A stretch of 64,000 nt of DNA, from the NCBI RefSeq assembly GCF_002854065.1, contig NZ_CP024147.1, one strand, 5' to 3'. Positions 1,862 to 16,954 of this stretch are shown in pieces (within the stretch, counting starts at the first letter, position 1; each line of letters starts with the position of its first letter). A program made the position numbers and the translations under genes. A model generated the notes under the pieces. It saw only the letters and a program-made list of their open reading frames with translations, was not told where the DNA came from and searched no databases. The stretch comes from Escherichia coli. Its GTDB lineage: Bacteria > Pseudomonadota > Gammaproteobacteria > Enterobacterales > Enterobacteriaceae.

Positions 1862-4474
1862 ATGATGCTCAGTAGCGAGTTTTTGCGCTTTTTTCAAACC
1901 TTAAACACAACAGAAGTCCCCAGTAATGTCAGGAAAATAGCGAATCTTGTGTGGGATAACCTAGATGATATAACCCCATTGGGCACTTCGCAGGGTCAGC
2001 GAGTCAGGCGCATTGTCTCTCTGGCACAGTCTGCATGGGATGCCCTCAGTACAGAAGTACAGCCACTACCAGAGCAGACCGCTGAACGCGTCTCCACGTT
2101 TAGTCGGCTGAGAAAGATATCTGTTGGACCATTTAGAGGGTTTGCAAAGCAAGAAGAATTTGATCTGGATTCACGTCTAGTGCTGATTTACGGCCCCAAT
2201 GGTACTGGGAAGTCAAGTTTCTGCGAAGCGCTTGAATATACATTACTGGGCAATGTGGCTGAGGCCGAAAGCAAGCGTTTCCGGAATCAAAACGACTATT
2301 TTAAAAATGCACATGTCAATCGGTTTTCTGTTCCAGAGATAATTGGTGTCGGAGATCATGGGCAGGATGTGTCGATTGAGAATAACGAAGCACAGTATCG
2401 CTTTTGCTTTGTTGAAAAAAATCGTATCGACAACTTTTCAAGAATCGCGGCTCTGGTCCCAACAAGGCAGACTGAACTTATCTCAACACTATTCGGGCTA
2501 GATAGTTTTAATGATTTTGTGCGAAATTTTACATCAGATATTGATGCCAGATACATCGATCTAACAGGCGTAAAAGCAGGTCAGTTGGCAGAAAAGCGCA
2601 AGTCTCTTCTGGCTGCACAGCAGCAATTGGCGACAGGTCAGGCTGCCCTGGAAGGGTTGGCATCAGAGGAACAGACACTGGCTTCTGTTTATCGTGAAGG
2701 CCTGTCTTACCAGCAGATGCTAGCTGAGTTAAAAGGGGATGAACAAAATATCGGAACCATCCGACAGCTTGAAACAGAGTTACAAACGCCACTTCCGAAT
2801 CAGAGTAGCCTGACATCTGCTATTTTGAACGATATAAGTAGCGCTGTTGAAACGGCACTTATAGATCTGGAAAGCAAGCAGAAGCAACTGGCAGAGGCAA
2901 GTCAGCAGGTTTCATATAAAAATTTATTTGAAGCAGTTGTCCAGTTACAGGGTACCAGCCCGGAACAATGCCCTGCATGCCATACCCCTCTTCAGCAAAC
3001 CGCCAAAAACCCCTACAGCCATGCCTGTGATGAATTGCTAAAGCTTGAGTTTCTGTCGACATTACAGGGAGAAATAACTCAGCTGGAAAAATTAATTGGC
3101 CAGTTGATGTACAGTGTTTCACAAGTAATCGGCACATGCTGTCAGTTTTTGCCACATGACAATGCTCTTGAAGTATTCCGAAATGAAAATGGCATCACTT
3201 TATGGCGTAATCTGCGGCAGCAAACAGGAGATGGCATAACTCCCTGGGCTCAGCTTGAAAAACAGGTGTGGCATCTGGAGGGAGAAGATAAAAAAATAGA
3301 GGAAGCAACTAAATTGCGAGAATCCCGTCAGCGGGATCTTGCGAGAATGCGTGAATCTGATCGCCAGATAACGATTTTGCAGACAAGAAGAGATACGATA
3401 GAAAAAACCATCTCTGCGGCTCAGTTGTTGATTGGCAACTTTGATACTGAAAACAGGCAGCTAATTGAAGAAGTTGCTCACGAAGAAGACATTGTAAGGA
3501 AAAACAAAGCAATTTCAGAAGCGTATTCCCGGTTCGTTTTACAGCTGAACGCCTATAAAGAGGGATTACCTCAGAGACTTGTAGCGAATCTTGGGGATCA
3601 CATTGTCACTCTCTACAACGCATTTAACCGTAATGACCCCCCGGGAGAAAAGCTAGCAGGTATCAAACTACCTCTGCTGCAGAATCAGCGACTGGAAGTA
3701 GCGTTTCAGAATAATCCAACGCAACTATTCGATGCCCTGCATGTACTTAGTGAGGGGCATGTACGCTGTATAGGGCTGGCTATTTTGTTGGCAAAAAACA
3801 TTAATGAACAGTGTCCACTTTTGATATTTGATGACCCGGTCAATGCTATTGATGACGATCACAGAGAATCGATTCGGAGAACGTTGTTTGAAGATGCTTT
3901 CTTTGCTGAAAAACAAATCATTCTGGCCTGCCATGGAGAGGAATTCTTCAAAGACATCCAGAATTTATTGCCAGCGCCGGTTGCCGCACAGTCCAAGACT
4001 TTCAGCTTCTTACCGCGTCTTGACGAATTGCATATCCGCGTAGATTTTAACTGCGCTCCCAGGAACTATATTATTTCTGCACGAGGGCATTATGAGCGTA
4101 ATGAGATTCGGGAGGCGCTTGCAAAATGCAGACAGTCACTTGAATCGTTGATGAAGGGGAGAGTCTGGCGATATGTAAATAAATATGGTGATGGTAATCT
4201 TAGTCTCAAGCTAAGGTCAGCAACGGCACCTATTGAGTTACGTAACTTGTCGGATCAATTGAAGAAACAGATCAATAAAGCTGAGTTCCGTGACCAAAAT
4301 AAAAACGCCGTATTCACACCAATTGATGTGTTAACTGGGCTAAGTGGAGAATCACGAGAATGGCGCTATCTAAATAAAGGTACGCATGAGGAAGACGGCA
4401 GGGCTGAGTTTGATCGAGCAACAGTAGAAACCATGATTTCTGCCCTTGAGGCGCTCGATCAGGCTGTGAGTTAA
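1862..4474 (+). CDS. Rad50/SbcC-type ABC ATPase with a long coiled-coil insert, a CxxC hook and a C-terminal RloC/PrrC-like domain (candidate anticodon nuclease / abortive-infection protein)
   Basis: ATPase motifs: Walker A G111PNGTGKSS, signature-like L629SEGH, Walker B LLIFDD658, D-loop AIDDDH and H-loop ILACHG. About 510 heptad-rich residues lie between them, with C370PAC373 at the midpoint. The C-terminal ~170 aa carry KYGDGN and LNKGTHEED. Confidence 0.7.
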   Translation: MMLSSEFLRFFQTLNTTEVPSNVRKIANLVWDNLDDITPLGTSQGQRVRRIVSLAQSAWDALSTEVQPLPEQTAERVSTFSRLRKISVGPFRGFAKQEEFDLDSRLVLIYGPNGTGKSSFCEALEYTLLGNVAEAESKRFRNQNDYFKNAHVNRFSVPEIIGVGDHGQDVSIENNEAQYRFCFVEKNRIDNFSRIAALVPTRQTELISTLFGLDSFNDFVRNFTSDIDARYIDLTGVKAGQLAEKRKSLLAAQQQLATGQAALEGLASEEQTLASVYREGLSYQQMLAELKGDEQNIGTIRQLETELQTPLPNQSSLTSAILNDISSAVETALIDLESKQKQLAEASQQVSYKNLFEAVVQLQGTSPEQCPACHTPLQQTAKNPYSHACDELLKLEFLSTLQGEITQLEKLIGQLMYSVSQVIGTCCQFLPHDNALEVFRNENGITLWRNLRQQTGDGITPWAQLEKQVWHLEGEDKKIEEATKLRESRQRDLARMRESDRQITILQTRRDTIEKTISAAQLLIGNFDTENRQLIEEVAHEEDIVRKNKAISEAYSRFVLQLNAYKEGLPQRLVANLGDHIVTLYNAFNRNDPPGEKLAGIKLPLLQNQRLEVAFQNNPTQLFDALHVLSEGHVRCIGLAILLAKNINEQCPLLIFDDPVNAIDDDHRESIRRTLFEDAFFAEKQIILACHGEEFFKDIQNLLPAPVAAQSKTFSFLPRLDELHIRVDFNCAPRNYIISARGHYERNEIREALAKCRQSLESLMKGRVWRYVNKYGDGNLSLKLRSATAPIELRNLSDQLKKQINKAEFRDQNKNAVFTPIDVLTGLSGESREWRYLNKGTHEEDGRAEFDRATVETMISALEALDQAVS

Positions 4475-4607: not shown

Positions 4608-5336
4608 TTAATCACTGAATACCAACGAATCTAATACACCTTGTCCACTATGAACTCCTCCTTCAACTGACTCTGCTGATTTGCTACGGATCAAATACCC
4701 AGCAAAACTGTGATCAGCGCTAGATGCATTGTTACCTATCTGGACGGAGAACATTCCTAGTTCGCTGACCAGATCAGTAACCTGATATAACTCCCCTTTA
4801 CGGACAACCAGAGAAGGTGTAGCTCGCGGGACAGGATGTATCCGACGCATGAACGACCAGGATTGATATTGCAGCGGGTCAAGTCTTGCCAGTTTTAACT
4901 GGATATCAGAGCCAAACAGACAATGCCCACCCCCTTCGCCCTGGTTTTTGAGAACCCATGAATCAGAAGGAGACTCTTTTACAATGCTGATTGTATCAGG
5001 GCTAACAGGAAGCATTTCGCCCAACACCATTTTTATGATATCAACCTCTTCCGGCTTCAGTCCAAAAGCAATCAGTTCATCGCACCCCAAATGAGAGAGC
5101 AACATTTGTACTCGCTTACTTGTCGCAAGTTGCTGAGCGACTGTTGCATTCACCGCAACTCGGTGCTGCTCAATCAATACTCGCGTGGCCATTAGCGTCT
5201 GGCAACACTCCTTCTCATTGAGACTGGCGGCTTCATAATCTGAGTATTGATATCCGGCACGTAAGTAAACAGAAGTAGTATGGGTGTATGAACTTGTCAT
5301 TGTTTTGACATTTATCAAATATATTCGATTATGCAT
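4608..5336 (-). CDS. Hypothetical protein (242 aa; the start may be Met12 at 5303)
   Basis: This is a long ORF convergent with the ATPase gene and divergent from arsR. I recognise no motif and see no TM segments. Confidence 0.45.
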   Translation of the reverse strand: MHNRIYLINVKTMTSSYTHTTSVYLRAGYQYSDYEAASLNEKECCQTLMATRVLIEQHRVAVNATVAQQLATSKRVQMLLSHLGCDELIAFGLKPEEVDIIKMVLGEMLPVSPDTISIVKESPSDSWVLKNQGEGGGHCLFGSDIQLKLARLDPLQYQSWSFMRRIHPVPRATPSLVVRKGELYQVTDLVSELGMFSVQIGNNASSADHSFAGYLIRSKSAESVEGGVHSGQGVLDSLVFSD

Positions 5337-5393: not shown

Positions 5394-5747
5394 ATGATGT
5401 CGCTTACTTCCCTACAACTCTTTAAGAATCTGTCTGATGAAACACGTCTGGGTATTGTTCTCATACTCAGAACTATGGGGGAGTTGTGCGTATGTGATCT
5501 TTGCACTGCACTTGATCAATCACAGCCTAAGATCTCCCGGCATCTGGCTATGTTGCGAGAAAGTGGGATTTTGCTTGATAGTAAACACGGTAAATGGGTT
5601 CATTACCGGTTATCCCCACACATTCCTTCATGGGCTGCACAGATTATTGAGCAGGCCTGGTTAAGCCAACAGGACGATCTTCAGGCCATCGCCCGTAAAC
5701 TGGCTTCAGTCAACTGCACTAACAGCAGTAAGGCTATTTGTATTTAA
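5394..5747 (+). CDS. arsR: ArsR arsenite-responsive repressor (R773 type)
   Basis: The 117-aa protein has the ELCVCDLC As(III) site and the LDQSQPKISRHLAMLRESGIL HTH. It is the first gene of arsRDABC. Confidence 0.95.
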   Translation: MMSLTSLQLFKNLSDETRLGIVLILRTMGELCVCDLCTALDQSQPKISRHLAMLRESGILLDSKHGKWVHYRLSPHIPSWAAQIIEQAWLSQQDDLQAIARKLASVNCTNSSKAICI

Positions 5748-5793
5748 AAATTTGCCTGAATATATATGATTTCCCACATATGAGGTATTGAGA

Positions 5794-6156
5794 ATGAAAA
5801 CGCTAGCGGTATTCGACCCGGCAATGTGTTGTAGCACCGGTGTCTGCGGTACTGATGTCGATCAGGCTCTGGTTGATTTTTCCGCGGATGTGCAATGGCT
5901 GAAACAACGAGGTGTTCAGGTAGATCGTTTCAATCTGGCACAGCAACCGATGAGCTTTGTCCAGAACGAGAAAGTTAAAGCATTTATTGAGGCTTCTGGT
6001 GCGGAAGGGCTGCCATTACTGTTACTGGATGGCGAAACAGTGATGGCCGGGCGTTATCCGAAACGGGCTGAACTTGCACGGTGGTTTGGAATTCCGCTGG
6101 AGAAAGTAGGATTAGCGCCTTCAGGCTGCTGCGGTGGTAATACTTCTTGTTGTTAA
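5794..6156 (+). CDS. arsD: ArsD arsenic metallochaperone
   Basis: MKTLAVFDPAMCCSTGVCG carries Cys12/13/18, and the C-terminal tail is GCCGGNTSCC. The protein is 120 aa. GAGG lies 8 nt before the ATG at 5794; the track start at 5788 is a TTG. Confidence 0.93.
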   Translation: MKTLAVFDPAMCCSTGVCGTDVDQALVDFSADVQWLKQRGVQVDRFNLAQQPMSFVQNEKVKAFIEASGAEGLPLLLLDGETVMAGRYPKRAELARWFGIPLEKVGLAPSGCCGGNTSCC

Positions 6157-6173
6157 GTATGTCAGGAGGACAT

Positions 6174-7925
6174 ATGAAATTCTTACAGAACATCCCCCCT
6201 TATCTGTTTTTTACTGGTAAAGGAGGCGTTGGTAAAACCTCTATTTCCTGCGCCACGGCGATCCGTCTGGCAGAACAGGGTAAACGAGTGCTGCTGGTCA
6301 GTACCGATCCGGCCTCAAACGTAGGCCAGGTCTTTGGCCAGGTTATTGGCAATACTATTCAGCCAATAGCCACTGTTCCTGGATTGTCGGCACTTGAGAT
6401 TGATCCTCAGGCCGCTGCGCAACAGTACCGGGCCAGAATCGTTGACCCTATTAAAGGTGTCCTGCCTGATGACGTCGTTAGCAGCATCAACGAACAACTG
6501 TCTGGTGCATGCACAACAGAGATTGCGGCTTTTGATGAGTTTACCGGATTACTGACAGACGCCTCTTTGCTGACCCAGTTTGACCATATCATCTTTGATA
6601 CCGCGCCAACCGGCCATACTATTCGCCTTCTCCAGTTGCCAGGCGCCTGGAGCAGCTTTATTGACAGCAATCCCGAGGGCGCATCCTGCCTCGGCCCGAT
6701 GGCGGGGCTGGAAAAACAGCGTGAACAGTATGCCCATGCCGTTGAAGCACTGTCCGACCCAGCGCGTACCCGCCTGGTTTTAGTTGCCAGACTGCAAAAA
6801 TCCACCCTGCAAGAAGTCGCCCGAACTCATTTAGAACTCGCCGCAATTGGCCTTAAAAATCAGTACTTGGTCATTAATGGCGTTCTGCCCAAAACTGAAG
6901 CGGCAAACGATACACTGGCTGCGGCTATATGGGACCGTGAACAGGAGGCGCTGGCCAATCTTCCTTCTGACCTTTCCGGTCTGCCAACTGACACGTTATT
7001 CCTCCAACCACTCAATATGGTCGGCGTGGCTGCATTAAGTGGGCTTCTCTCCTCTCAGCCTGAGGCAGCATCATCTTCTGAAGAATACATTCAGCAACGA
7101 CCTGAAATTCCGTCGCTCTCAGCGTTAGTCGATGATATTGCCCGTAACGAACATGGTCTGATAATGCTAATGGGCAAAGGCGGTGTGGGGAAAACCACGA
7201 TGGCGGCAGCCATTGCCGTCAGACTGGCCGAAATGGGATTTGATGTCCATCTGACCACCTCAGATCCAGCAGCACACCTCAGCACAACCCTGAACGGTAG
7301 CCTTAACAATCTGCAGGTCAGTAGAATCGATCCTCACGAGGAAACAGAACGCTATCGTCAGCATGTTCTTGATACCAAGGGTGGAGAACTGGATGAAGCG
7401 GGTAAACGCCTGCTGGAAGAAGATTTACGCTCTCCTTGTACCGAAGAGATTGCGGTCTTCCAGGCCTTTTCACGGGTGATTCGTGAAGCGGGTAAGCGCT
7501 TCGTGGTCATGGATACGGCACCCACCGGGCATACCCTACTGCTGCTGGATGCCACCGGGGCGTATCACCGCGAAATTGCTAAGAAAATGGGCGATAAAGG
7601 CCATTTCACCACGCCAATGATGCAGCTTCAGGACCCGGAGCGAACCAAAGTGTTACTGGTCACGCTGCCGGAAACCACGCCCGTGCTTGAGGCGGCAAAT
7701 TTGCAGGCCGACCTTGAACGCGCAGGGATTCATCCCTGGGGCTGGATTATCAATAACAGCCTTTCCATTGCGGATACCCGTTCGCCGCTGCTTCGTCTGC
7801 GGGCGCAACAGGAACTTCCGCAGATCGAGAGTGTTAAACTCCAGCATGCCAGTCGCGTAGCTCTTGTTCCTGTACTGGCGTCAGAACCGACCGGCATCGA
7901 CAAACTCAAACAACTCGCTGGTTAA
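6174..7925 (+). CDS. arsA: ArsA arsenite-stimulated pump ATPase
   Basis: The 583-aa protein has two halves, each with GKGGVGKT and DTAPTGHT. The metalloid-site cysteines are in [14 protein letters not shown] and RSPCTEE. AGGAGG precedes the ATG at 6174. Confidence 0.95.
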
Positions 7926-7972
7926 TTATTGTCATTACTCGGGGCAGCTTTGCTGCCCTTTCGGGAGGTTAT

Positions 7973-9262
7973 ATGTTACTGGCAGGAGCCATTTTTATCC
8001 TGACCATCGTGTTGGTTATCTGGCAGCCAAAGGGATTAGGCATTGGCTGGAGCGCCACGCTGGGTGCCGTACTGGCTCTGGCATCGGGTGTGATTCATAT
8101 CGCCGATATTCCGGTGGTGTGGAATATCGTCTGGAACGCCACGGCCACCTTTATTGCCGTCATTATCATCAGTCTGTTGCTGGATGAGTCCGGCTTTTTT
8201 GAATGGGCTGCACTGCACGTTTCCCGCTGGGGCAATGGGCGTGGACGTCTGCTATTTACCTATATTGTTCTGCTCGGCGCGGCGGTGGCGGCATTGTTTG
8301 CCAACGATGGCGCGGCGTTAATTCTGACGCCGATCGTTATCGCCATGCTACTGGCGCTGGGATTCAGTAAAAGCACCACGCTGGCTTTCGTGATGGCCGC
8401 AGGGTTTATTGCCGATACCGCCAGCTTGCCACTTATCGTATCGAACCTGGTCAATATCGTTTCGGCTGATTTCTTCAAACTGGGATTCACGGAGTATGCG
8501 TCAGTTATGGTGCCGGTGGATATTGCCGCCATTGTCGCCACGCTGGTGATGCTGCATCTTTTTTTCCGCAAAGATATCCCGCCCACTTATGAGCTGGCGC
8601 GACTGAAAGAACCCGCAAAAGCCATCAAAGATCCTGCGACGTTCAGAACCGGCTGGGTTGTGCTCCTCCTTCTGCTGGTCGGTTTTTTTGTCCTTGAGCC
8701 GATGGGGATCCCTGTGAGTGCGATTGCGGCAGTGGGGGCGGCAATCCTGTTTGCGGTGGCCAAAAAAGGTCATGGTATTAACACCGGTAAAGTGCTGCGC
8801 GGCGCGCCCTGGCAGATCGTGATCTTCTCACTGGGGATGTATCTGGTGGTATACGGGTTGCGTAACGCCGGTCTGACGGATTATCTCTCTGACGTGCTGA
8901 ACGTACTGGCAGATAAAGGACTGTGGGCCGCGACGCTGGGGACAGGATTCCTGACTGCATTCCTCTCTTCTATCATGAACAATATGCCGACCGTACTGGT
9001 TGGCGCACTGTCGATTGATGGCAGCACCGCGACCGGCGTTATCAAAGAAGCGATGATTTATGCCAACGTCATTGGCTGCGATCTGGGGCCGAAAATCACC
9101 CCTATTGGTAGCCTGGCGACACTGCTCTGGCTGCACGTGCTTTCACAGAAGAATATGACAATCTCGTGGGGATACTACTTCCGCACCGGGATTATCATGA
9201 CCCTGCCTGTGCTGTTTGTAACGCTGGCTGCGCTGGCGCTACGTCTCTCTGTCACTTTGTAA
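7973..9262 (+). CDS. arsB: ArsB arsenite/antimonite efflux permease
   Basis: This is a 429-aa polytopic membrane protein sitting between arsA and arsC, and the sequence is recognised as ArsB. Confidence 0.95.
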
Positions 9263-9274
9263 TGAGATTCTGAT

Positions 9275-9700
9275 ATGAGCAACATCACTATTTATCACAA
9301 CCCAGCCTGCGGCACCTCGCGTAATACGCTGGAGATGATCCGCAACAGCGGTACCGAGCCGACCATTATTCTTTACCTTGAGAACCCACCTTCGAGGGAT
9401 GAATTGGTCAAACTCATTGCCGATATGGGTATTTCAGTACGAGCGCTGCTGCGTAAAAACGTTGAGCCTTACGAGCAACTGGGTCTTGCAGAAGATAAAT
9501 TTACTGACGATCAGCTCATCGACTTTATGTTGCAACACCCAATTCTGATTAACCGTCCGATCGTGGTTACGCCGCTGGGAACCAGACTGTGCCGTCCTTC
9601 TGAAGTGGTTCTGGATATCCTGCAGGATGCGCAGAAAGGGGCTTTCGCTAAGGAAGACGGTGAAAAGGTCGTTGATGAAGCAGGAAAACGGCTGAAATAA
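9275..9700 (+). CDS. arsC: ArsC glutaredoxin-type arsenate reductase (full length, copy 1)
   Basis: MSNITIYHNPACGTSRNTLEMIRNSG... carries the catalytic Cys12. The protein is 141 aa. Confidence 0.95.
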   Translation: MSNITIYHNPACGTSRNTLEMIRNSGTEPTIILYLENPPSRDELVKLIADMGISVRALLRKNVEPYEQLGLAEDKFTDDQLIDFMLQHPILINRPIVVTPLGTRLCRPSEVVLDILQDAQKGAFAKEDGEKVVDEAGKRLK

Positions 9701-9734: not shown

Positions 9735-10271
9735 TCAGAGCATCATGCCTGAATCCGATGGTAACGTGCTGTTCCCTTCGCCCAGATTTCGTTGCAGCAA
9801 CACTGTGTCAAGCCAACGACCATGCTTGAAGCCAATATTTTTCAGCGTACCAATCTCAGTAAATCCAACCTGCTGATGGACTTTCAGCGAACCTTGATTA
9901 TTGCTATCGCCGACAATAGCAATCATCTGCCGATAGCCGTGAGTTTCTGCCCAGGCAATGACGTAGCGCAGCAACGCTTTTCCTGTCCCCTGACGCTGTG
10001 CGTCCGGGTGAATATAAATCGAATCTTCGAGAGTGTGGCGGTAGGCGTAGCGTTCACGGTAACGAGTGAGATAACAATACCCGATAACCTTTTCTTCCTC
10101 TAACGCGACAACCCACGGTAGCGCCTGATTGCGGATCTTTTTCAGGCGGGTAAGCATCTCGTGGGTATCCGGAGGTTCAGTTTCAAAGCTGGCGGTACCG
10201 TGAAGAACATGATGGGCGTAGATATCGCGTATAGCGGGGATGTGCTTTTCTTCTGCGTTAACGATTTTCAT
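9735..10271 (-). CDS. arsN: GNAT N-acetyltransferase of the phosphinothricin-acetyltransferase (PAT/MddA) family; ArsN1-like by context
   Basis: IRDIYAHHVLHGTASFETEPP... and QRQGTGKALL...GYRQMIAIVGDSNNQGSLKVHQQVGF resemble PAT/YncA. The gene is adjacent to ars genes. Confidence 0.65.
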   Translation of the reverse strand: MKIVNAEEKHIPAIRDIYAHHVLHGTASFETEPPDTHEMLTRLKKIRNQALPWVVALEEEKVIGYCYLTRYRERYAYRHTLEDSIYIHPDAQRQGTGKALLRYVIAWAETHGYRQMIAIVGDSNNQGSLKVHQQVGFTEIGTLKNIGFKHGRWLDTVLLQRNLGEGNSTLPSDSGMML

Positions 10272-10435
10272 TGTTCTGTTCCCGTTGGCATCTTTTTCAA
10301 GGTTACTTGAAAATCCTGAGGAAAGGTAAATACAAAAGCTTATGACCCAATAAGCAGGCTAATCTTCAATCCCATCTTTTGTTTTCATTCATGCAGGGAG
10401 ACAAATATGTGCTTCCAGTATCCTTATTTTTTATG

Positions 10436-10479
10436 TTACCTTTTCCGTTATGTCTAAAATGACATAACGGAAAAGGTAA
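10436..10479. promoter_or_regulatory. Perfect 19+19 bp palindrome (6-bp spacer) overlapping the ribosome-binding site of the TauE-family gene; candidate operator or RBS-sequestering hairpin
   Basis: The sequence is TTACCTTTTCCGTTATGTC-taaaat-GACATAACGGAAAAGGTAA. It ends 4 nt before the ATG at 10484. Confidence 0.6.
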
Positions 10480-10483
10480 ACCC

Positions 10484-11308
10484 ATGTCCTCAGAATCAAA
10501 ACGGAACGGAAAAGGTTTTTTATCAGGCACGTTAATCGGTGCTTTAGGCGGCTTAATTGGCCTCGGTGGCGCTGAGTTCCGCCTTCCCGTCCTGATGGGT
10601 AGTTTCAAAATGCCGACGCTTGAAGCGGTTATTTTTAACAAAGCGATGAGCCTTACTGTTGTCGCTGTTGCTTTGATATTCCGCACAAAATCCATCGCCG
10701 TCGACCAGCTGTTTGCTCATCTTGATATTGTCATCAATTTGCTGGCCGGGAGCCTTATAGGTGCATGGTGGGCAGCAGGAAGAGCCATAAAAATGTCCCG
10801 TATTTGGCTGGACAGAACCATTCTGCTCCTGCTTGTTATCCTGTCATTCGTCATGTTTTCAGAAGCATTGATGCCTCTGCATGATAGCTCCGCTGGATTA
10901 TTCCAGCCCGGAATCGCGACCATTATTGCGGGTGTTATTGCGGGTGTTATTGCGGGTTTCTTCATCGGGAATGTTGCTGCTTTGCTGGGTGTTGCAGGGG
11001 GAGAGCTCCTGATACCAACTATCGTTATCCTTTTTGGGGCTGACATTAAACTGGCTGGCAGTTTGTCACTCATGATCAGTTTACCGACGATGATTGTGGG
11101 GTTCTCTCGCTACACTAATGCAGATGCTTTCCAGATCCTGAGAAAAGAGAAAAAACTTTTTGTGTGGATGGTCATCGGTTCCGTTATAGGTGCCGCTATT
11201 GGGGGCCTTATGCTCGGTATGTTCCCGGTAAGAGTACTTATGACTCTGTTAGGCGCGGTACTTCTTATTTCCGCGATCAAAACCTTTAAGCATACCCGGC
11301 AAAGATAA
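10484..11308 (+). CDS. TauE/SafE (DUF81) family anion-exporter-like membrane protein
   Basis: The 274-aa polytopic protein has internally duplicated G-rich motifs: GALGGLIGLGGAEFRLPVLMG and LLGVAGGELLIPTIV. Confidence 0.7.
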   Translation: MSSESKRNGKGFLSGTLIGALGGLIGLGGAEFRLPVLMGSFKMPTLEAVIFNKAMSLTVVAVALIFRTKSIAVDQLFAHLDIVINLLAGSLIGAWWAAGRAIKMSRIWLDRTILLLLVILSFVMFSEALMPLHDSSAGLFQPGIATIIAGVIAGVIAGFFIGNVAALLGVAGGELLIPTIVILFGADIKLAGSLSLMISLPTMIVGFSRYTNADAFQILRKEKKLFVWMVIGSVIGAAIGGLMLGMFPVRVLMTLLGAVLLISAIKTFKHTRQR

Positions 11309-11370
11309 TAGCCGTTTACGCTTTGGACTATTCCGCATTACAGAGAAAATGATTTCGAAAAGGTATCAGA

Positions 11371-11739
11371 ATGAAAAAGAATCCCCTTAAATCAAACTTA
11401 ATCTTAGTCAGACCGAGGATCTATATTAACGACAACATCTCGCTGGGGCCGGGGAAGGTTGACCTTTTAAGGGCGATTGATGGCTTTCACTCTCTTTCTG
11501 CGGCAGCTAAAGATTTGGGGATACCTTATAAAAAAGCATGGCTCTTAATTGACACTTTGAATAAAGGGATTGGTCAGCCAGTTGTAACCACTTCCACTGG
11601 TGGTAACAAGGGCGGTGGTACAGTTCTGACGCCATTGGGGCGTAGCCTGCTGATCTGGTATGACCAGGCCGAGGCCCACCTCAATGAGCAATCTCAGCAA
11701 CAGTTAATCGAACTTGAAAAGATTCTTTTTGGAAAATGA
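11371..11739 (+). CDS. ModE N-terminal-domain-like wHTH regulator lacking Mop/TOBE ligand domains
   Basis: SLSAAAKDLGIPYKKAWLLIDTLNKGIGQPVVTTSTGGNKGGGTVLTPLGRSLL parallels ModE SISQGAKDAGISYKSAWDAINEMN...ATGGKGGGGAVLTRYGQRL. The protein is only 122 aa. Confidence 0.7.
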   Translation: MKKNPLKSNLILVRPRIYINDNISLGPGKVDLLRAIDGFHSLSAAAKDLGIPYKKAWLLIDTLNKGIGQPVVTTSTGGNKGGGTVLTPLGRSLLIWYDQAEAHLNEQSQQQLIELEKILFGK

Positions 11740-11784: not shown

Positions 11785-11810
11785 ATGAAGGGGGCTAATG
11801 CCCCCTTCAT
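11785..11810. terminator. Bidirectional hairpin terminator between the modE-like gene and the convergent arsA2
   Basis: ATGAAGGGGGCTAATGCCCCCTTCAT has the same AAGGGGGC-NAAT-GCCCCCTT core as the hairpin at 9704. Confidence 0.65.
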
Positions 11811-11812
11811 TA

Positions 11813-13570
11813 TTACTTCGCCATTTCTTCCAGCAGGTCAATACCAACCGGCTCTTCGCTCTGTAGCGCTGTTAATGCAATACGCTTTGCATACTGCTCT
11901 TCCACATCAGAGATGAGAGGCAGCTCGCGGTTAGCTCTGGTCTTCAGGAAAGGTGAAGACGGCTCAGCAGCTGCCAGGCTGTTATTCACAACCCATGCCC
12001 ACGGCTCAATGCCAGCCCGACGCAGATCCTGCTGCAGGTTAGCGGCTTCCAGTACAGGTGTCGTTTCGGCAAGCGTCACGATAATCACCTTCGTCTTCTC
12101 CGGGTCCTGCAATTGCATCATTGGCGTCATCACATGGTCATGTGTTTGCCCCATCTGGCGCACCATTTCCCGGTGATAGGCTCCAGTCGCATCCAGTAGC
12201 AGAAGTGTGTGACCCGTTGGCGCGGTGTCCATAATGACAAAATGATCGTCTGCCTCTTTGATTATCCGCGAGAATGCCTGGAAGACGGCGATCTCTTCAG
12301 TACATGGTGAGCGGAGATCTTCTTCCAGCACCGCCAGCCCCTCAGCGTCTAATCCTTTGCCCTGATTCTCCAGTACAAAACGGCGATAACGCTCTGTCTC
12401 CACCTTCGGATCGATACGGCTGACCTGCAGATTTGGCAGCGAGCCATCCAGCGTGTAAGACAGATGTGCTGCCGGATCGGACGTGGTCAGATGGACTTTA
12501 TGACCGCGTTTTGCCAGCGATACCGCGACCGATGCTGCAACAGTCGTTTTGCCCACGCCGCCTTTCCCCATCGTCATTACCAGCCCTTTGCCTGTCAGAC
12601 TGAGTTCATCCACTAACGAGGAAAGTTTCGGTAAATCCAGAGCATTTAGCGTTGTATTGGAGAGAGACAGTGGCGCTTTGCTCTCTGTTAATAACTCTCG
12701 CAGGGCTTCCAGACCGACCAGATTAAATGGCTTCAGAGACAGCTGCGAGCGGGGAAGATTAACCAGATTATCAGGCATTGCCTGTAATGCTTTTTCTTCC
12801 CGAGCCAGAATACTTTGCGCCAGTGGATCATTTTCACCGGCAAACGGTGGCAGCACACCATTAATGGCAAGGTGTTGATGCTGCAAACCAATAGCAGAAA
12901 GCTCATCGTGCGTATGAGAAACCTCTTTCAGCGTTGAAGCCTGAGCTCGGGCAACCAGCACTAAGCGTGTGAGAGCTGCGTCGGACAGCGCTTTAACCGC
13001 ATCGGAGTACTGGTGCTGTTGTTTCTCAAGCCCTACCAGAGGTCCAAGGTTTGCAGCGGCATCAGGGTTCGCTTCGAGATAACCGCTCCAGGCTCCCGGC
13101 AATTCAAGCATGCGGATGGTGTGACCGGTTGGCGCGGTATCAAATACGATATGGTCATATTTTCCCCGCAGCTCATGATTGGTCAGCAGACCAGTAAACT
13201 CATCAAACGCAGCGATTTCCGTGGTGCATGAGCCGGAAAGCTGCTCTTCAATGCTGCTGACCACATCGGCTGGCATCAGCCCGCGAACAGGGTCGAGCAC
13301 ACGGTCACGATAGGCTTGCGCTGCAGCCATCGGATCAACTTCCATCGCGGCAAGATTTTCTACAGTACTGATATCTGTGATTCGGTGGCCGATAGTCTGG
13401 CTAAATACCTGGCCGACATTGGAAGCCGGATCGGTACTCACCAGAAGCGTTCTCTTACCCTGATCGGCCAGCCATACTGCAGTAGCACAGGCCAGGGATG
13501 TCTTACCCACTCCACCTTTACCAGTGAAGAAGATGAACGGGGGAATGTCTTTTAAAAATGGCATATTCAT
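11813..13570 (-). CDS. arsA: ArsA-family ATPase, second divergent copy lacking the Cys172 equivalent
   Basis: The protein has two GKGGVGKT / DTAPTGHT halves. SGSCTTE and RSPCTEE are present, but ANPDAAANLGP aligns with [11 protein letters not shown] of copy 1. GAGGAG precedes the ATG at 13570 (MNMPFLKD...). Confidence 0.9.
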   Translation of the reverse strand: MNMPFLKDIPPFIFFTGKGGVGKTSLACATAVWLADQGKRTLLVSTDPASNVGQVFSQTIGHRITDISTVENLAAMEVDPMAAAQAYRDRVLDPVRGLMPADVVSSIEEQLSGSCTTEIAAFDEFTGLLTNHELRGKYDHIVFDTAPTGHTIRMLELPGAWSGYLEANPDAAANLGPLVGLEKQQHQYSDAVKALSDAALTRLVLVARAQASTLKEVSHTHDELSAIGLQHQHLAINGVLPPFAGENDPLAQSILAREEKALQAMPDNLVNLPRSQLSLKPFNLVGLEALRELLTESKAPLSLSNTTLNALDLPKLSSLVDELSLTGKGLVMTMGKGGVGKTTVAASVAVSLAKRGHKVHLTTSDPAAHLSYTLDGSLPNLQVSRIDPKVETERYRRFVLENQGKGLDAEGLAVLEEDLRSPCTEEIAVFQAFSRIIKEADDHFVIMDTAPTGHTLLLLDATGAYHREMVRQMGQTHDHVMTPMMQLQDPEKTKVIIVTLAETTPVLEAANLQQDLRRAGIEPWAWVVNNSLAAAEPSSPFLKTRANRELPLISDVEEQYAKRIALTALQSEEPVGIDLLEEMAK

Positions 13571-13590
13571 CAGTGATAGCTCCTCTGGAA

Positions 13591-13953
13591 TTAAGGCATA
13601 CGTGGAATGCTGCAGCAACGCGGTTGCGTACTGTCTTCACTCCAGTCCTGAGTTAGCGGAATATCTGCCCAACGGGCGATATCTTCACGAGTCGGCAGTT
13701 TGCCTGCCATCACCAGCTTGCCGTCGAGCAAGGTGACAGGGAGGGATTCCATCCCTGATGTGTTCATAAACTCTTTGATTACAGGGGTATTCAGGAACTG
13801 CTGCGGGTTTTTCGCAAGGCTGTAGCGCTGAATATCAACGCCATTCTTTTTCGCCCATTCGGCGCTGGCATTCCATTTGACGGCTTCGTCGCTCACCACA
13901 ACGCTGCTGGTTGCGCAGCAGCCTGCTGCTTCAAAGATCTCAATTTTTGACAT
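13591..13953 (-). CDS. arsD: ArsD-family metallochaperone, second divergent copy (Cys12-Cys13 kept, residue 18 is Val)
   Basis: The 120-aa protein begins MSKIEIFEAAGCCATSSVVV. Its thioredoxin-like core aligns to ArsD (LPVTLLDGKLVMAGKLPTREDIARW). The C-terminus is PRCCSIP. Confidence 0.8.
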   Translation of the reverse strand: MSKIEIFEAAGCCATSSVVVSDEAVKWNASAEWAKKNGVDIQRYSLAKNPQQFLNTPVIKEFMNTSGMESLPVTLLDGKLVMAGKLPTREDIARWADIPLTQDWSEDSTQPRCCSIPRMP

Positions 13954-13958
13954 GGATT

Positions 13959-14002
13959 GTTTACCTCAGTGTTTAGTCATTTGGCTTTACACTGAGGTAA
14001 AC
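13959..14002 (-). promoter_or_regulatory. 13-bp perfect stem-loop in the sigma-arsD2 spacer whose 3' arm contains the arsD2 Shine-Dalgarno
   Basis: On the mRNA strand the sequence is GTTTACCTCAGTG-(18 nt)-CACTGAGGTAAAC, followed by AATCC-ATG. No U-run follows. Confidence 0.5.
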
Positions 14003-14028
14003 GAAGGTGGTGGGAAAAAGATGCGCGA

Positions 14029-14574
14029 TTAATTCATTTTTTTGTGGCAGCAGACAAAAGATGTGTCATCCGCCTCAATCTGGCAGAGTTCTGTCATCGT
14101 CTCTTTCAGGTGTTTTCTGGCCCGAAGTAGTCGGGATTTAAACGCTGTAAGCGTGATTCCCCATTCATCGGCCAGGGACTGCTGGGGACGCCGGTTAAGG
14201 TCGGACTCTTCAATCAACCACCGCTCATCTTCGGGTAAAGCCTGTAATGTTTCAGGCAGGCAAATATCCAGTGTTGAGATTGCATCAAGGGATGCGTCTG
14301 TTAATAGGGCATCTTCTTCCAGCTCAACAAACGCCCTGGTGGTTCGGTACTCATCAATCAGCAGATTCCTTGCTACCCGATACAACCAGGCTCGCGGATT
14401 TTCCATCTCACAAAAAATGTCTGAATGGGCTCGGGCACGCAGGAAAAGGTCTTGCAGAAGGTCTGCTGCTTTTTCGCTATCGCCTGTCTTCGATATCAGA
14501 AAGCGAGAAAATTCGCCTTCATGCTGCCGCCAGAACACGCTCATACAGCTGTTGAATGCTGTTATGTCACTCAT
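14029..14574 (-). CDS. ECF-type sigma-70 family factor with a C-terminal Cys-x10-Cys-Cys extension
   Basis: Region 2 is DLLQDLFLRA...AWLYRVARNLLIDEYR. Region 4 is LPEDERWLIEESDLNRRPQQSLADEWGITLTAFKSRLLRARKHL. The tail is LCQIEADDTSFVCCHKKMN. The likely ATG is at 14574, 8 nt after the arsH stop. Confidence 0.8.
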   Translation of the reverse strand: MSDITAFNSCMSVFWRQHEGEFSRFLISKTGDSEKAADLLQDLFLRARAHSDIFCEMENPRAWLYRVARNLLIDEYRTTRAFVELEEDALLTDASLDAISTLDICLPETLQALPEDERWLIEESDLNRRPQQSLADEWGITLTAFKSRLLRARKHLKETMTELCQIEADDTSFVCCHKKMN

Positions 14575-14582
14575 ACTAACCT

Positions 14583-15293
14583 TCAAATTTTGCTCTGATT
14601 AACCCGTCGGGAAAGTTCTTCTGCAGACTCTTTTCGTTCACTGTAGCGATCGACAAGATAGGCAGAATTTGCCCGGGTCAACAATGTAAACTTCATCAAT
14701 TCTTCCATCACATCCACGATGCGGTCGTAATATGGTGACGGTTTCATACGTCCATCGTCATCAAACTCCTGCCAGGCTTTTGCTACCGAGGACTGGTTCG
14801 GAATAGTGATCATTCTCATCCAACGACCAAGCACGCGCATCTGGTTGACTGTGTTGAATGACTGGGAACCTCCACACACTTGCATAACAGCCAGAGTTTT
14901 TCCCTGAGAAGGACGAACAGCACCTTCAGATAATGGTATCCAGTCAATTTGTGCCTTCATAATACCAGTCATCGCTCCGTGTCGTTCCGGAGAGCACCAC
15001 ACCATTCCTTCAGACCAGCGGACCAGTTCACGCAACTCCATAACTTTTGGATGTGACTCCGGTGCATCATCAGGAAGTGGAAGGCCAGATGGATTAAAAA
15101 TGCGGACTTCTGCGCCCATCGCAGTTAACAACCGACCAGCTTCCTCTGTCGCCAGTCGACTGTATGAGCGCTCACGAACTGAGCCATAAAGCATTAGTAT
15201 ACGAGGGGGGTGAGATATTGTCGGTATCCCCATTTTTTGCTCAGTTATTGCAGCATCAAATAAATCAGGAACTATATTATTTAGCTTATTCAT
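14583..15293 (-). CDS. arsH: ArsH NADPH-dependent FMN reductase / organoarsenical oxidase
   Basis: [18 protein letters not shown]...[23 protein letters not shown] is typical of ArsH. The protein is 236 aa. Confidence 0.9.
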
Positions 15294-15391
15294 TTTTTAT
15301 TTTCCCTATAGATTCGGGATCTTAGTAGGATGGATTCAGACGGTTCGATGCAGCTTTCGTCAATCATGACAGTTATGAGTTTTTCGGTTAC

Positions 15392-15715
15392 TTATCCATT
15401 TTTGCCAGCGGGTTCCGTAACATCTGTTTTACTGTTTACACAGCACTCTTCACGTAAGAATTCGATGATAGCTTCCAGTATTTCGTATTGAGAGACGCAC
15501 ATGAGCGTTCGACTCTCCCGGTTTTGTGTGACGAGTCCTACTGATACTAAGGCTGAAATATGATGACTTAACGTTGATGAGGGAATGCCAAGCTGCTTTT
15601 GCAATTCACCTACAGGCAAACCTTGTTCTCCAGCTTTTACAAGATGTTTGAATATGAACAAACGGGTCGGGTGACCCAGCTCTTTTAGTGCTTTAGCTAC
15701 TTCTTCCAATTGCAT
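15392..15715 (-). CDS. arsR: ArsR/SmtB-family repressor, second type (C-terminal vicinal Cys pair, no CVC site)
   Basis: HPTRLFIFKHLVKAGEQGLPVGELQKQLGIPSSTLSHHISALVSVGLV is an ArsR-type wHTH. REECCVNS lies near the C-terminus. The protein is 107 aa. Confidence 0.85.
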   Translation of the reverse strand: MQLEEVAKALKELGHPTRLFIFKHLVKAGEQGLPVGELQKQLGIPSSTLSHHISALVSVGLVTQNRESRTLMCVSQYEILEAIIEFLREECCVNSKTDVTEPAGKNG

Positions 15716-15736: not shown

Positions 15737-15795
15737 ATATTTCGATAATACCAGAAATATCTTGACCAGAATTATATTTCGATTATTCTAGAAAT
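15737..15795. promoter_or_regulatory. Divergent promoter region with two tandem 22-24 bp operator-like repeats, 37 bp apart
   Basis: ATATTTCGATAATACCAGAAAT is at 15737-15758 and ATATTTCGATTATTCTAGAAAT at 15774-15795. Each has the internal dyad ATTTC-N10-GAAAT. TTGACC at 15762-15767 lies between them. Confidence 0.6.
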
Positions 15796-15820
15796 GTAGA
15801 TTTTGTCAAGAGGGTTTAGT

Positions 15821-16954
15821 ATGAATAGTTGGATTTCTATGCTGCAAGATGCCGCAGAGATGTTTTTGTTTTTGGCCGTCGAGCTATCTTTGCTGTTTAT
15901 TGTCATCAGTGCCGGTGTGAGCCTGATAAGGCAAAAGGTCCCGGACCATAAAATCCAGCAATTGTTGGGGGCGAAAAAAGGAAAAGGCTACCTGCTGGCC
16001 TCGTTGTTGGGAGCCGTTACCCCTTTCTGTAGTTGCTCAACAATTCCAATGCTACGAGGGTTGTTGTCGGCGAAAGCAGGGTTTGGTCCGACACTCACTT
16101 TTTTGTTTGTTTCACCGTTGCTTAATCCCATTATCGTGGGGTTAATGTGGGTTACCTTTGGCTGGAAAGTAACTTTGTTGTACGCGATCATCGCTGCCGG
16201 TGTCTCAGTCCTTGCCAGTATCGTATTGGATTTACTAGGATTTGAACGTCATATTGTTGATCACAAAAACTCAGCATCAAGTGGTTGCGCCACCAAATGT
16301 GATGATTCCGAAGCTTCGGTAAAAACGTCGGCGGGTTCCAGTTGTTGCAGCACTAGCTCGACTCAATTGCCTGTAAAAACGAGTTGCTGTACTTCATCAG
16401 CGAACCCCATAATTAACTTAAGGACGGTAAAGAACGAGCAGAACGTATCAACGTGTTGTTCATCAATATCATCTGAACAACCAGCTGTTAGCTGTTGCAG
16501 CAGCGAGAATCTGGGCAATGTGAATCTCACACCGAATACCACCTCTGGCCCAATAAAGTTAGCTATGAAAGATGCCTTACAGCAGTTTAAGGATGTTCTG
16601 CCTTATCTTTTGTTAGGTGTATTAATAGGTTCATTTATTTATGGCTTTATCCCTTCAGAGTGGATTGCAGCTCATGCCGGAGCAGATAATCCCTTAGCCA
16701 TACCGCTGAGTGCAGTTGTTGGTATTCCGTTGTATATACGCGCAGAGGCAGTGATACCACTTGCATCAGTGCTGATGACTAAAGGAATGGGCCTGGGGGC
16801 ATTAATGGCCTTGATAATCGGTAGTGCTGGAGCGAGTTTGACAGAAGTAATACTGCTTAAATCAATGTTCAGAATGCCTATGATAGTCGCTTTTCTGACA
16901 GTTATCTTAGGTATGGCAATTCTAATGGGTTATCTGACTCAATTCTTGTTTTAA
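15821..16954 (+). CDS. ArsP-like (UPF0718/DUF318) permease with a Ser/Cys-rich central loop
   Basis: The motif TPFCSCSTIPML lies in an early TM segment and the protein has multiple TM helices. A ~75-aa loop carries GCATKC plus four (S/T)CC(S/T) pairs. The ATG at 15821 is preceded by AGAGGG; the track start at 15803 is a TTG. Confidence 0.7.
   Translation: MNSWISMLQDAAEMFLFLAVELSLLFIVISAGVSLIRQKVPDHKIQQLLGAKKGKGYLLASLLGAVTPFCSCSTIPMLRGLLSAKAGFGPTLTFLFVSPLLNPIIVGLMWVTFGWKVTLLYAIIAAGVSVLASIVLDLLGFERHIVDHKNSASSGCATKCDDSEASVKTSAGSSCCSTSSTQLPVKTSCCTSSANPIINLRTVKNEQNVSTCCSSISSEQPAVSCCSSENLGNVNLTPNTTSGPIKLAMKDALQQFKDVLPYLLLGVLIGSFIYGFIPSEWIAAHAGADNPLAIPLSAVVGIPLYIRAEAVIPLASVLMTKGMGLGALMALIIGSAGASLTEVILLKSMFRMPMIVAFLTVILGMAILMGYLTQFLF

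Follow-up and report, generated by a model that had tools for sequence, protein, structure and literature searches.

Joint loss of ArsD C18 and ArsA C172 in a recurrent two-cysteine ArsD-ArsA pair: a module of an Escherichia coli arsenic island with a possible role in organoarsenical resistance

The ArsD-ArsA couple is the textbook case of a hand-off from a metallochaperone to an ATPase, and structural confirmation of its three-sulfur sites is very recent. Recent X-ray absorption spectroscopy and cryo-electron microscopy of LfArsA placed As(III) in three-coordination on C114, C173 and C422 in the closed ATP state; such three-coordinate binding closes and activates ArsA, and AlphaFold 3 models in the literature show C12, C13 and C18 of ArsD facing the ArsA cysteines. 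In the structural literature, C172 of ArsA sits on a mobile loop and is proposed to set the affinity. The 64,000-nucleotide stretch of Escherichia coli DNA analysed here (contig NZ_CP024147.1 of assembly GCF_002854065.1; hereafter, the window) carries a two-part arsenic island (5.4-17.0 kb) with two arsD-arsA pairs. The first belongs to a canonical R773-type arsR1-arsD1-arsA1-arsB-arsC cluster, and the second (arsD2-arsA2) belongs to an intact arsR2-arsH-sigma-arsD2-arsA2 module, with neither arsB nor arsC in its operon. What is the meaning of a second pair, in which both the chaperone and the ATPase lack one of the three cysteines? A first-pass annotation, made from the window alone, had read these losses, together with a change in the ArsR2 repressor, as a coordinated tuning to trivalent organoarsenicals.

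The ArsD1 protein, which reads MKTLAVFDPAMCCSTGVCG, possesses the C12, C13 and C18 cysteines; ArsD2, which reads MSKIEIFEAAGCCATSSVVV, has C12 and C13 and has lost C18. The alignment of ArsD2 with ArsD1 and PDB 3mwh revealed a 2-residue deletion in the C18 loop, which means that C18 was deleted and not simply replaced by valine, as the first-pass annotation had it. ArsD2 has four cysteines in total, the other two (C113 and C114) being located in the conserved C-terminal CCxIPRxP tail. It matches the Pfam ArsD family PF06953 (1.4e-29; 103 bits, cutoff 27) and falls under the cutoff of the NCBIfam ArsD equivalog NF033727 (84.4 bits, cutoff 90). Similarly, ArsA1 possesses all three cysteines C113, C172 and C422, and ArsA2 (63% identical to ArsA1) retains C113, H148, S420, C422 and H453 and has an asparagine at position 172, in the AAANLGP motif, as first read. 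The sole further cysteine of ArsA2 is C26, and no cysteine is able to replace C172. Because C172 and C18 are both missing, ArsA2 and ArsD2 are unable to form the three-sulfur As(III) site. ArsA2 scores 944 bits against the TIGR04291 ArsA equivalog (cutoff 650), its best PDB matches are 1f48 (809 bits) and 9nbl, and both its P-loops and its signal-transduction DTAPTGHT motifs are retained.

These features are conserved and under selection. The CC-only form of ArsD2 is kept in orthologues down to 60% identity, and down to 45% in a sister lineage, and N172 in AAANLGP holds together with the retained site residues in ArsA2 orthologues down to 74% identity. The arsD2 gene lies directly upstream of arsA2 (the last base of arsD2 is at 13591, the first of arsA2 at 13570), in the same order in all related loci. 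Comparison with the Klebsiella aerogenes-type copy gave ratios of nonsynonymous to synonymous substitution rates (dN/dS) of 0.083 for arsD2 and 0.065 for arsA2; with a range of 0.03-0.08 and a value of about 0.07 overall, the module is under strong purifying selection. The module is 99.9% identical to that of the E. coli CUWW06 chromosome, and it is complete in 115 plasmids and in 36 of 5426 complete E. coli genomes, many of the hosts being derived from poultry or swine. Judging from this conservation, the ArsD2/ArsA2 pair is clearly functional. The relatives of ArsA2 retrieved by a word-based search were all at least 93% identical and gave no information on how far C172 is spread.

A library-wide search for ArsD yielded 719 clusters at 50% identity. 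About 10 of the approximately 110 full-length top representatives were CC-only, most of the others reading CCxxxxC. The genomic context was recovered for six CC-only ArsD lineages, four of which have an ArsA of their own, and in all four this ArsA lacks C172 and keeps C113 and C422. Position 172 is N in lineage 1 (ArsD2/P0183), S in lineage 2 (P0202; loci L020 and L115), Y in lineage 3 (P0205; Bacteroidetes, L102-104) and F in lineage 4 (P0232; L108). In L020 and L102, a canonical pair, ArsD with three cysteines and ArsA with C172, occurs on the same contig and serves as an internal control. Sampling of 80 ArsA loci from species-representative genomes and of another 80 from metagenomes gave about 150 canonical ArsD/C172 ArsA pairs and zero discordant pairs. 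In the roughly 180 ArsD/ArsA pairs overall, each CC-only ArsD with its own ArsA adjoins a C172-less ArsA. One apparently discordant pair (L033) was rejected as an artefact of a wrong-frame open reading frame (ORF), the true ArsD there being canonical. In a neighbour-joining tree, the four C172-less ArsAs were polyphyletic and fell in separate regions of the family. When 202 ArsAs were grouped at 70% identity into 26 clusters (22 with Cys172 and 4 without), the four non-Cys172 clusters were exactly those with a CC-only ArsD (Fisher p ~7e-5).

By sequence comparison, we thus showed that the paired C18/C172 loss arose independently at least four times in bacteria, and never singly where ArsD has its own ArsA; therefore, ArsD C18 and ArsA C172 are functionally coupled. 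The covariation that the first-pass annotation had proposed as a test is thereby observed. As judged from their invariance within the lineage, the low dN/dS values and their recurrence in three unrelated lineages, the paired substitutions exceed chance. The remaining two of the six CC-only lineages have no dedicated ArsA. One of them (P0215, in L105) is an orphan ArsD with no ArsA; the other is in L109, a Firmicutes-like conjugative element also bearing an ArsM-like methyltransferase, where two tandem arsD genes (L109:8001-8783), the first CC-only and the second canonical CCxxxxC, precede a single canonical arsA and follow acr3. A cysteine-less ArsD-like protein (P0199) was set aside since it lies outside any ars context, and a tblastn search of plasmids with the CC-only ArsDs P0288, P0301 and P0252 returned no close relatives, only canonical ArsD and ArsD2 matches.

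ArsH, which belongs to the organoarsenical oxidase family, scores 403.6 bits against the TIGR02690 equivalog (cutoff 292). The sigma factor satisfies the general extracytoplasmic function (ECF) superfamily model and best matches the SigZ profiles TIGR02959 and NF007215, below their cutoffs (131.9 bits versus 168.65 for TIGR02959). Its C-terminus, C-x10-11-CCHKKM, is conserved down to 52% identity, and there is no anti-sigma gene at its locus. A SigZ-like sigma gene also precedes the CC-only arsD/arsA pair of the Bacteroidetes element (L102:6313-6906); that protein bears a CC-x12-C motif plus an N-terminal ECC. Such SigZ-like sigmas may sense arsenicals directly. In this respect we take as a lead only the CorE-like ECF sigmas, which presumably carry cysteine-rich C-terminal extensions: the module sigma shares with them the small ECF type, the absence of an anti-sigma gene and the C-terminal cysteines; unlike them, its best profile is SigZ, below the cutoff, and its link to arsenic and its sensing role are putative.

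The gap between the sigma gene and arsD2 contains the motif GCATCYTTT-N12-CGTTTAC, which has a single match in the window and 0 in 100 shuffles. Each orthologous locus has one copy, invariably immediately before arsD2, except L004 and L005, which have two, one preceding acr3 and the other arsD2. We infer that this motif is the promoter read by the co-encoded sigma. After it comes a leader hairpin in which the ribosome-binding site of arsD2 is sequestered by pairing; its 8-bp core stem is kept in five orthologues with only 1-2 compensatory changes, the covariation being weak.

The permease gene divergent from the module (ydaA in R64) encodes a member of the PF03773 ArsP_1 family (9e-55), below the SO_0444 and SaoE cutoffs and 44% identical to the short-form ArsP_1 permease of the Bacteroidetes ars element. 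It shares this Pfam family with CjArsP of Campylobacter jejuni, a methylarsenite and roxarsone(III) efflux permease that presumably has the same TPFCSCS motif (with C65 and C67) as the one found at residues 67-73 of the window permease. Unlike CjArsP, the window permease is of the long form, has a loop with four CC pairs and is not a constant partner of the module; its role in export is predicted. The loop, hydrophilic and about 100 amino acids long (16290-16540, + strand), contains the pairs SSCCST, TSCCTS, STCCSS and VSCCSS, plus a CxxxC motif, and no tandem DNA repeat was found under it. In the permease allele of the pESI-like plasmids, two of the CC pairs are lost through a deletion of 32 residues. 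Long-form ArsP proteins with an insert of about 100 amino acids were described by Castillo & Saier (2010).

The ArsR2 repressor matches NF033788 (63 bits, cutoff 55). It has no ELCVCDLC site, and its C-terminal sequence is ...EECCVNSKTD..., with the vicinal pair C91-C92 and no cysteine at n+7. The first-pass annotation was right about the missing site and the vicinal pair and wrong in stating that this pair is all there is, for ArsR2 also holds C73, 18 residues before the pair and conserved in every orthologue. We liken C73 to C83 of SpArsR (from Shewanella putrefaciens 200), which we take to be likewise 18 residues upstream of its pair. The SpArsR type, which is selective for MAs(III), is defined in the literature as a repressor that resembles AfArsR and has its CC pair, but no third cysteine; with its C-terminal CC pair and no third cysteine at n+7, ArsR2 falls within this type by the published definition. 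This two-cysteine form was found in 10 of the 19 module loci, including those of the window, R64, pESI and Serratia and one Klebsiella copy (L022), in which the n+7 cysteine is replaced by arginine. Unlike the SpArsR type, the Klebsiella-type orthologues keep the third cysteine (EECCSGTDDC, in L010-L015, L067, L142 and L159). ArsR2 thus seems, from these sequences, to toggle between three-cysteine and two-cysteine states within one module family, so that the coordinated loss first proposed for ArsD, ArsA and ArsR holds for ArsD and ArsA and not for ArsR. Regulators with vicinal cysteines also stand beside other two-thiol pairs, namely an ArsR with two CC pairs in the S172 lineage and a PadR protein with a GCC motif in the lineage borne by an integrative and conjugative element (ICE). 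In L016 (5275-5673), this GCC-motif PadR-family regulator heads an arsD-arsA-arsH-phosphodiesterase-ArsK-like operon, and it may be a PadR-type arsenical sensor.

The company of the pair varies between lineages. On the proteobacterial ICE, the sister lineage reads PadR-arsD-arsA-arsH-phosphodiesterase-ArsK-like major facilitator superfamily (MFS) permease; in the Bacteroidetes lineage, the order is acr3, then arsD(CCC)-arsA(C172)-SigZ-like sigma-arsD(CC)-arsA(Y172), then arsR and ArsP_1. ArsP-family permeases are near lineages 1 and 3, an ArsM-like methyltransferase gene is upstream of the module in L009, and no sigma gene accompanies the pair in the P0183, S172 and F172 lineages. Within Enterobacterales, the plasmid-type island alone carries the ArsP-type permease, the TauE permease and the ModE-like gene; of the spacer genes, only an ArsN-like gene is found in the Klebsiella and Serratia chromosomal versions. 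The unit that the first-pass annotation had drawn, with arsP-like and arsN genes nearby, is that of the plasmid-type island and is not constant elsewhere.

A natural experiment is provided by the pESI-like megaplasmids of Salmonella Infantis, in which only this module and the permease are left after truncation by IS26. In non-isogenic strains, two pESI isolates had a minimum inhibitory concentration (MIC) of phenylarsine oxide of 8 ug/mL versus 0.25 for LT2 (32-fold), and, in the same strains, an MIC of NaAsO2 of 128 ug/mL versus 64 for LT2 (2-fold; PMC9219668, Table 2). The MICs of arsenate were also raised in pESI hosts, and, according to the authors, the plasmids are without arsB and the genomes of the isolates yielded no acr3 (PMC9219668). 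These MICs fit an organoarsenical bias of the whole module.

From the above lines of evidence we propose, with a probability of about one half, that ArsD2-ArsA2 represents a functional two-thiol ArsD-ArsA subclass, with a site suited to R-As(III), that works with ArsH and an ArsP-type or other permease. The joint loss leaves C12-C13 on the chaperone and C113-C422 at the domain interface of the ATPase. Such a two-coordinate site would suit methylarsenite, phenylarsenite and trivalent roxarsone, since R-As(III) offers only two bonds to thiols. The pathway would operate as follows. First, organoarsenicals would be detected by the two-cysteine SpArsR-like ArsR2, the derepression of which would yield ArsH and the sigma factor. 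Second, the sigma would fire the conserved promoter before arsD2-arsA2. Third, ArsD2 would capture the organoarsenical and hand it to ArsA2. Fourth, ArsA2 would energise its export through a neighbouring permease, the candidates being the ArsP-type one in the window and in pESI and, elsewhere, ArsB, Acr3 or an ArsK-like MFS permease. Finally, ArsH would oxidise the organoarsenical left unexported.

This organoarsenical reading of the module is plausible, and the SpArsR-like ArsR2, the presence of arsH in the operon, the ArsP- and ArsK-type permeases in the vicinity and the pESI MICs speak for the tuning first proposed. Against it stand the arsB and acr3 contexts, the three-cysteine ArsR2 proteins and the inconstancy of ArsP, along with several further observations. 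The C113-C422 couple alone can still bind Sb(III) and As(III). ArsH or the permease alone could explain the resistance to phenylarsine oxide. As 9 of the 19 loci with the same ArsD2/ArsA2 encode an ArsR2 with a CC-x5-C site of the three-cysteine AfArsR type, induction is not restricted to organoarsenicals. The Enterobacterales core arsR2-arsH-sigma-arsD2-arsA2 is almost always placed tail-to-tail with an arsB-containing cluster, and the chromosomal versions have no ArsP-type permease. In L007 and L008, sigma-arsD2-arsA2 lies beside arsRBC with no other arsD or arsA; in L004 and L005, an inserted acr3 gene, preceded by a promoter motif of its own, separates the sigma gene from arsD2 (acr3 being at L004:8747-9817 and L005:195-1265, and ArsD2 there 72% identical). 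The arsB adjacency, the arsRBC-only context and the acr3 insertion suggest that the pair serves arsenite permeases. In the S172 lineage, arsR-arsD-arsA is found beside a divergent ATP-binding cassette exporter, and neither arsH nor arsP was found in the available DNA of the S172 and F172 lineages, two of the four. Conversely, arsH is also found near canonical pairs (5 of 77 genome loci). Lastly, the CC-only ArsD of L109 is an extra tandem copy that precedes a canonical ArsD and a C172 ArsA.

In the main rival reading, ArsD2/ArsA2 would be a second arsenite/antimonite pair, of altered and probably lower affinity or different kinetics, the two-thiol site of which would bind As(OH) or Sb(OH) and not R-As and which would serve ArsB or Acr3 at high arsenite. 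We regard this as possible and yet rather unlikely. In its favour, the proximity of arsB, the arsRBC-only loci, the shared promoter motif of acr3 and the As(III)-type three-cysteine site in about half of the ArsR2 orthologues are joined by the score of ArsA2, far above the ArsA equivalog cutoff, by the higher arsenate and slightly higher arsenite MICs of pESI hosts, and by the description of C172 as an affinity-tuning residue and not as part of the high-affinity core. However, a second arsenite pair leaves unexplained why C18 and C172 were lost jointly in four lineages, usually with a canonical pair alongside; the closure and activation of ArsA need three-coordinate binding; the 2-fold gain against arsenite in pESI hosts is small compared with the 32-fold gain against phenylarsine oxide; and the pair is accompanied by ArsH and by SpArsR-like or CC-type regulators.

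An improbable alternative is that ArsD2/ArsA2 is not part of a pump and primarily regulates the neighbouring ECF sigma, sensing arsenicals in an anti-sigma-like or partner-switching manner. A sigma gene followed by arsD(CC-only) and arsA(no C172) does recur in Enterobacterales and in the Bacteroidetes element, both sigmas are SigZ-like with conserved terminal cysteine clusters, no anti-sigma gene is present, and ArsD was originally described as a weak trans-acting repressor. This proposal is at odds with the lack of a sigma gene in three of the lineage groups (P0183, S172 and F172), with the pump-ATPase P-loops and DTAPTGHT motifs kept in ArsA2, and with the promoter motif, which indicates that the sigma drives arsD2-arsA2 and not the reverse. 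As to neutral decay of a redundant paralogue hitch-hiking with the canonical arsRDABC operon, which is usually adjacent, the selection (dN/dS) and recurrence data effectively refute it, as the ORFs are intact in hundreds of replicons, the motifs are invariant across deep divergence, the module persists alone on pESI and the paired loss recurs in other phyla.

If the two-thiol reading is extended to its full reach, C18 and C172 would be co-evolving ligands, and two-thiol ArsD/ArsA proteins would form a separate, recurrent class of pump, which would run on ATP, receive trivalent organoarsenicals from its chaperone and energise ArsP- or ArsK-type permeases. In enterobacteria and Bacteroidetes, a SigZ-like sigma that senses arsenicals and has a cysteine tail would turn the pump on, and the spread of the pump on poultry plasmids (pESI) would reflect selection by feed additives of the roxarsone type. 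We consider this whole picture doubtful. If true, it would mean that methylated or aromatic arsenicals have a primary transporter, the first of its kind.

How does the pair compare with what is known? Similarly to the R773-type ArsD-ArsA (1f48, 3mwh and 9nbl), it consists of the same two families in the same arsD-arsA order, ArsA2 keeps both nucleotide sites, and ArsD2 has a thioredoxin-like ArsD domain with C12-C13. Unlike the R773-type pair, ArsA2 is without C172, ArsD2 is without C18, and the two genes are co-transcribed with arsH and the ECF sigma gene, with no arsB or arsC in the operon. The sequence and annotation of the locus itself have been available for a long time. Plasmid R64 and plasmids of Citrobacter, Salmonella and E. 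coli carry the island at 93-96% identity, and in R64 and pESI it is annotated as arsR2-arsH-sigZ-arsD2-arsA2/ydaA. Castillo & Saier (2010) wrote in one sentence that "C172 is replaced by an N in Sty1" (the Salmonella R64 protein) and suggested a possible link between ArsA and ArsP. Our literature searches found no two-cysteine ArsD/ArsA system, no link between N172 and the loss of ArsD C18, no recurrence and no functional test of these. The statement of the first-pass annotation that such a specialised pair was undescribed is therefore to be narrowed: the covariation was not found in the literature, whereas the C172N change in R64 had been noted in 2010. What appears to be new, from the comparisons made here, is the paired loss of ArsD C18 and ArsA C172 and its recurrence.

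Table 1. Features of the arsenic island and their positions in the window.
Feature	Position	Strand	Remarks
arsR1-arsD1-arsA1-arsB-arsC	5394..9700	+	Canonical R773-type cluster; in-window comparator and nearest ArsB
ArsD1	5794-6156	+	
ArsA1	6174-7925	+	
ArsN1-like GNAT	9735-10271	-	ArsN1b 145 bits, under the cutoff of 210
TauE/SafE permease	10484-11308	+	
ModE-N-like winged helix-turn-helix regulator	11371-11739	+	
Terminator-like GC-rich hairpin	11785..11810		Separates the ModE-like gene from arsA2, the two being convergent; 11-bp stem with 7 GC pairs
arsA2	11813..13570	-	TIGR04291 ArsA equivalog match
arsD2	13591..13953	-	PF06953
Conserved leader hairpin ACCUCAGUG...CACUGAGGU	13963..13998	-	3' arm holds the arsD2 Shine-Dalgarno GAGG
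Putative ECF-sigma promoter GCATCYTTT-N12-CGTTTAC	13997..14024	-	In the 75 bp that separate arsD2 from the sigma gene
SigZ-like ECF sigma factor	14029..14574	-	Start overlaps the arsH end
arsH	14583..15293	-	NADPH-FMN oxidoreductase, organoarsenical oxidase family; TIGR02690
arsR2	15392..15715	-	ArsR/SmtB repressor; NF033788
Sigma-70-like promoter matches	15771..15809	-	In the divergent arsR2/permease intergenic region; TTGACA-16-AATAAT, 11/12, consensus match only
Long-form ArsP-family permease (ydaA in R64)	15821..16954	+	PF03773; divergent from the module

The ArsN1-like GNAT, TauE permease and ModE-N-like regulator genes form the spacer (9735..11739) between the two arsenic clusters. Outside the island, a 242-amino-acid ORF just upstream of arsR1 (4608-5336, - strand) matches only the C-terminal ATP-binding half of PF03917, the eukaryotic-type glutathione synthase, and its counterpart is labelled glutathione synthase in related Citrobacter plasmids. 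Further upstream (1862-4474, + strand) lies the gene for an 870-amino-acid ATPase of the SMC/AAA_15/AAA_21 type. Directly after the permease, a low-GC block (38-41%; 17413-23013, + strand) comprises a tyrosine-integrase-like gene followed by five ORFs without Pfam match. Both the low-GC block and the 870-amino-acid ATPase have the look of cargo from an island boundary or of the defence type. At about 24395-24850 there is a second arsC-like ORF.

The recurrent paired loss of ligands is natural evidence that C18 and C172 cooperate in the hand-off from ArsD to ArsA, and the two-thiol variants offer a ready test set for the relation between coordination number and the choice between inorganic and organic arsenic. 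The module, which is annotated as an arsenite pump, is common on enterobacterial plasmids and chromosomes. Its carriers include plasmids of clinical importance, namely the IncI1 R64-like ones and the pESI megaplasmid of Salmonella Infantis associated with poultry, as well as islands of Klebsiella and Citrobacter. If it protects its hosts against aromatic arsenical feed additives, it would be a candidate driver of the co-selection of multidrug-resistance plasmids.

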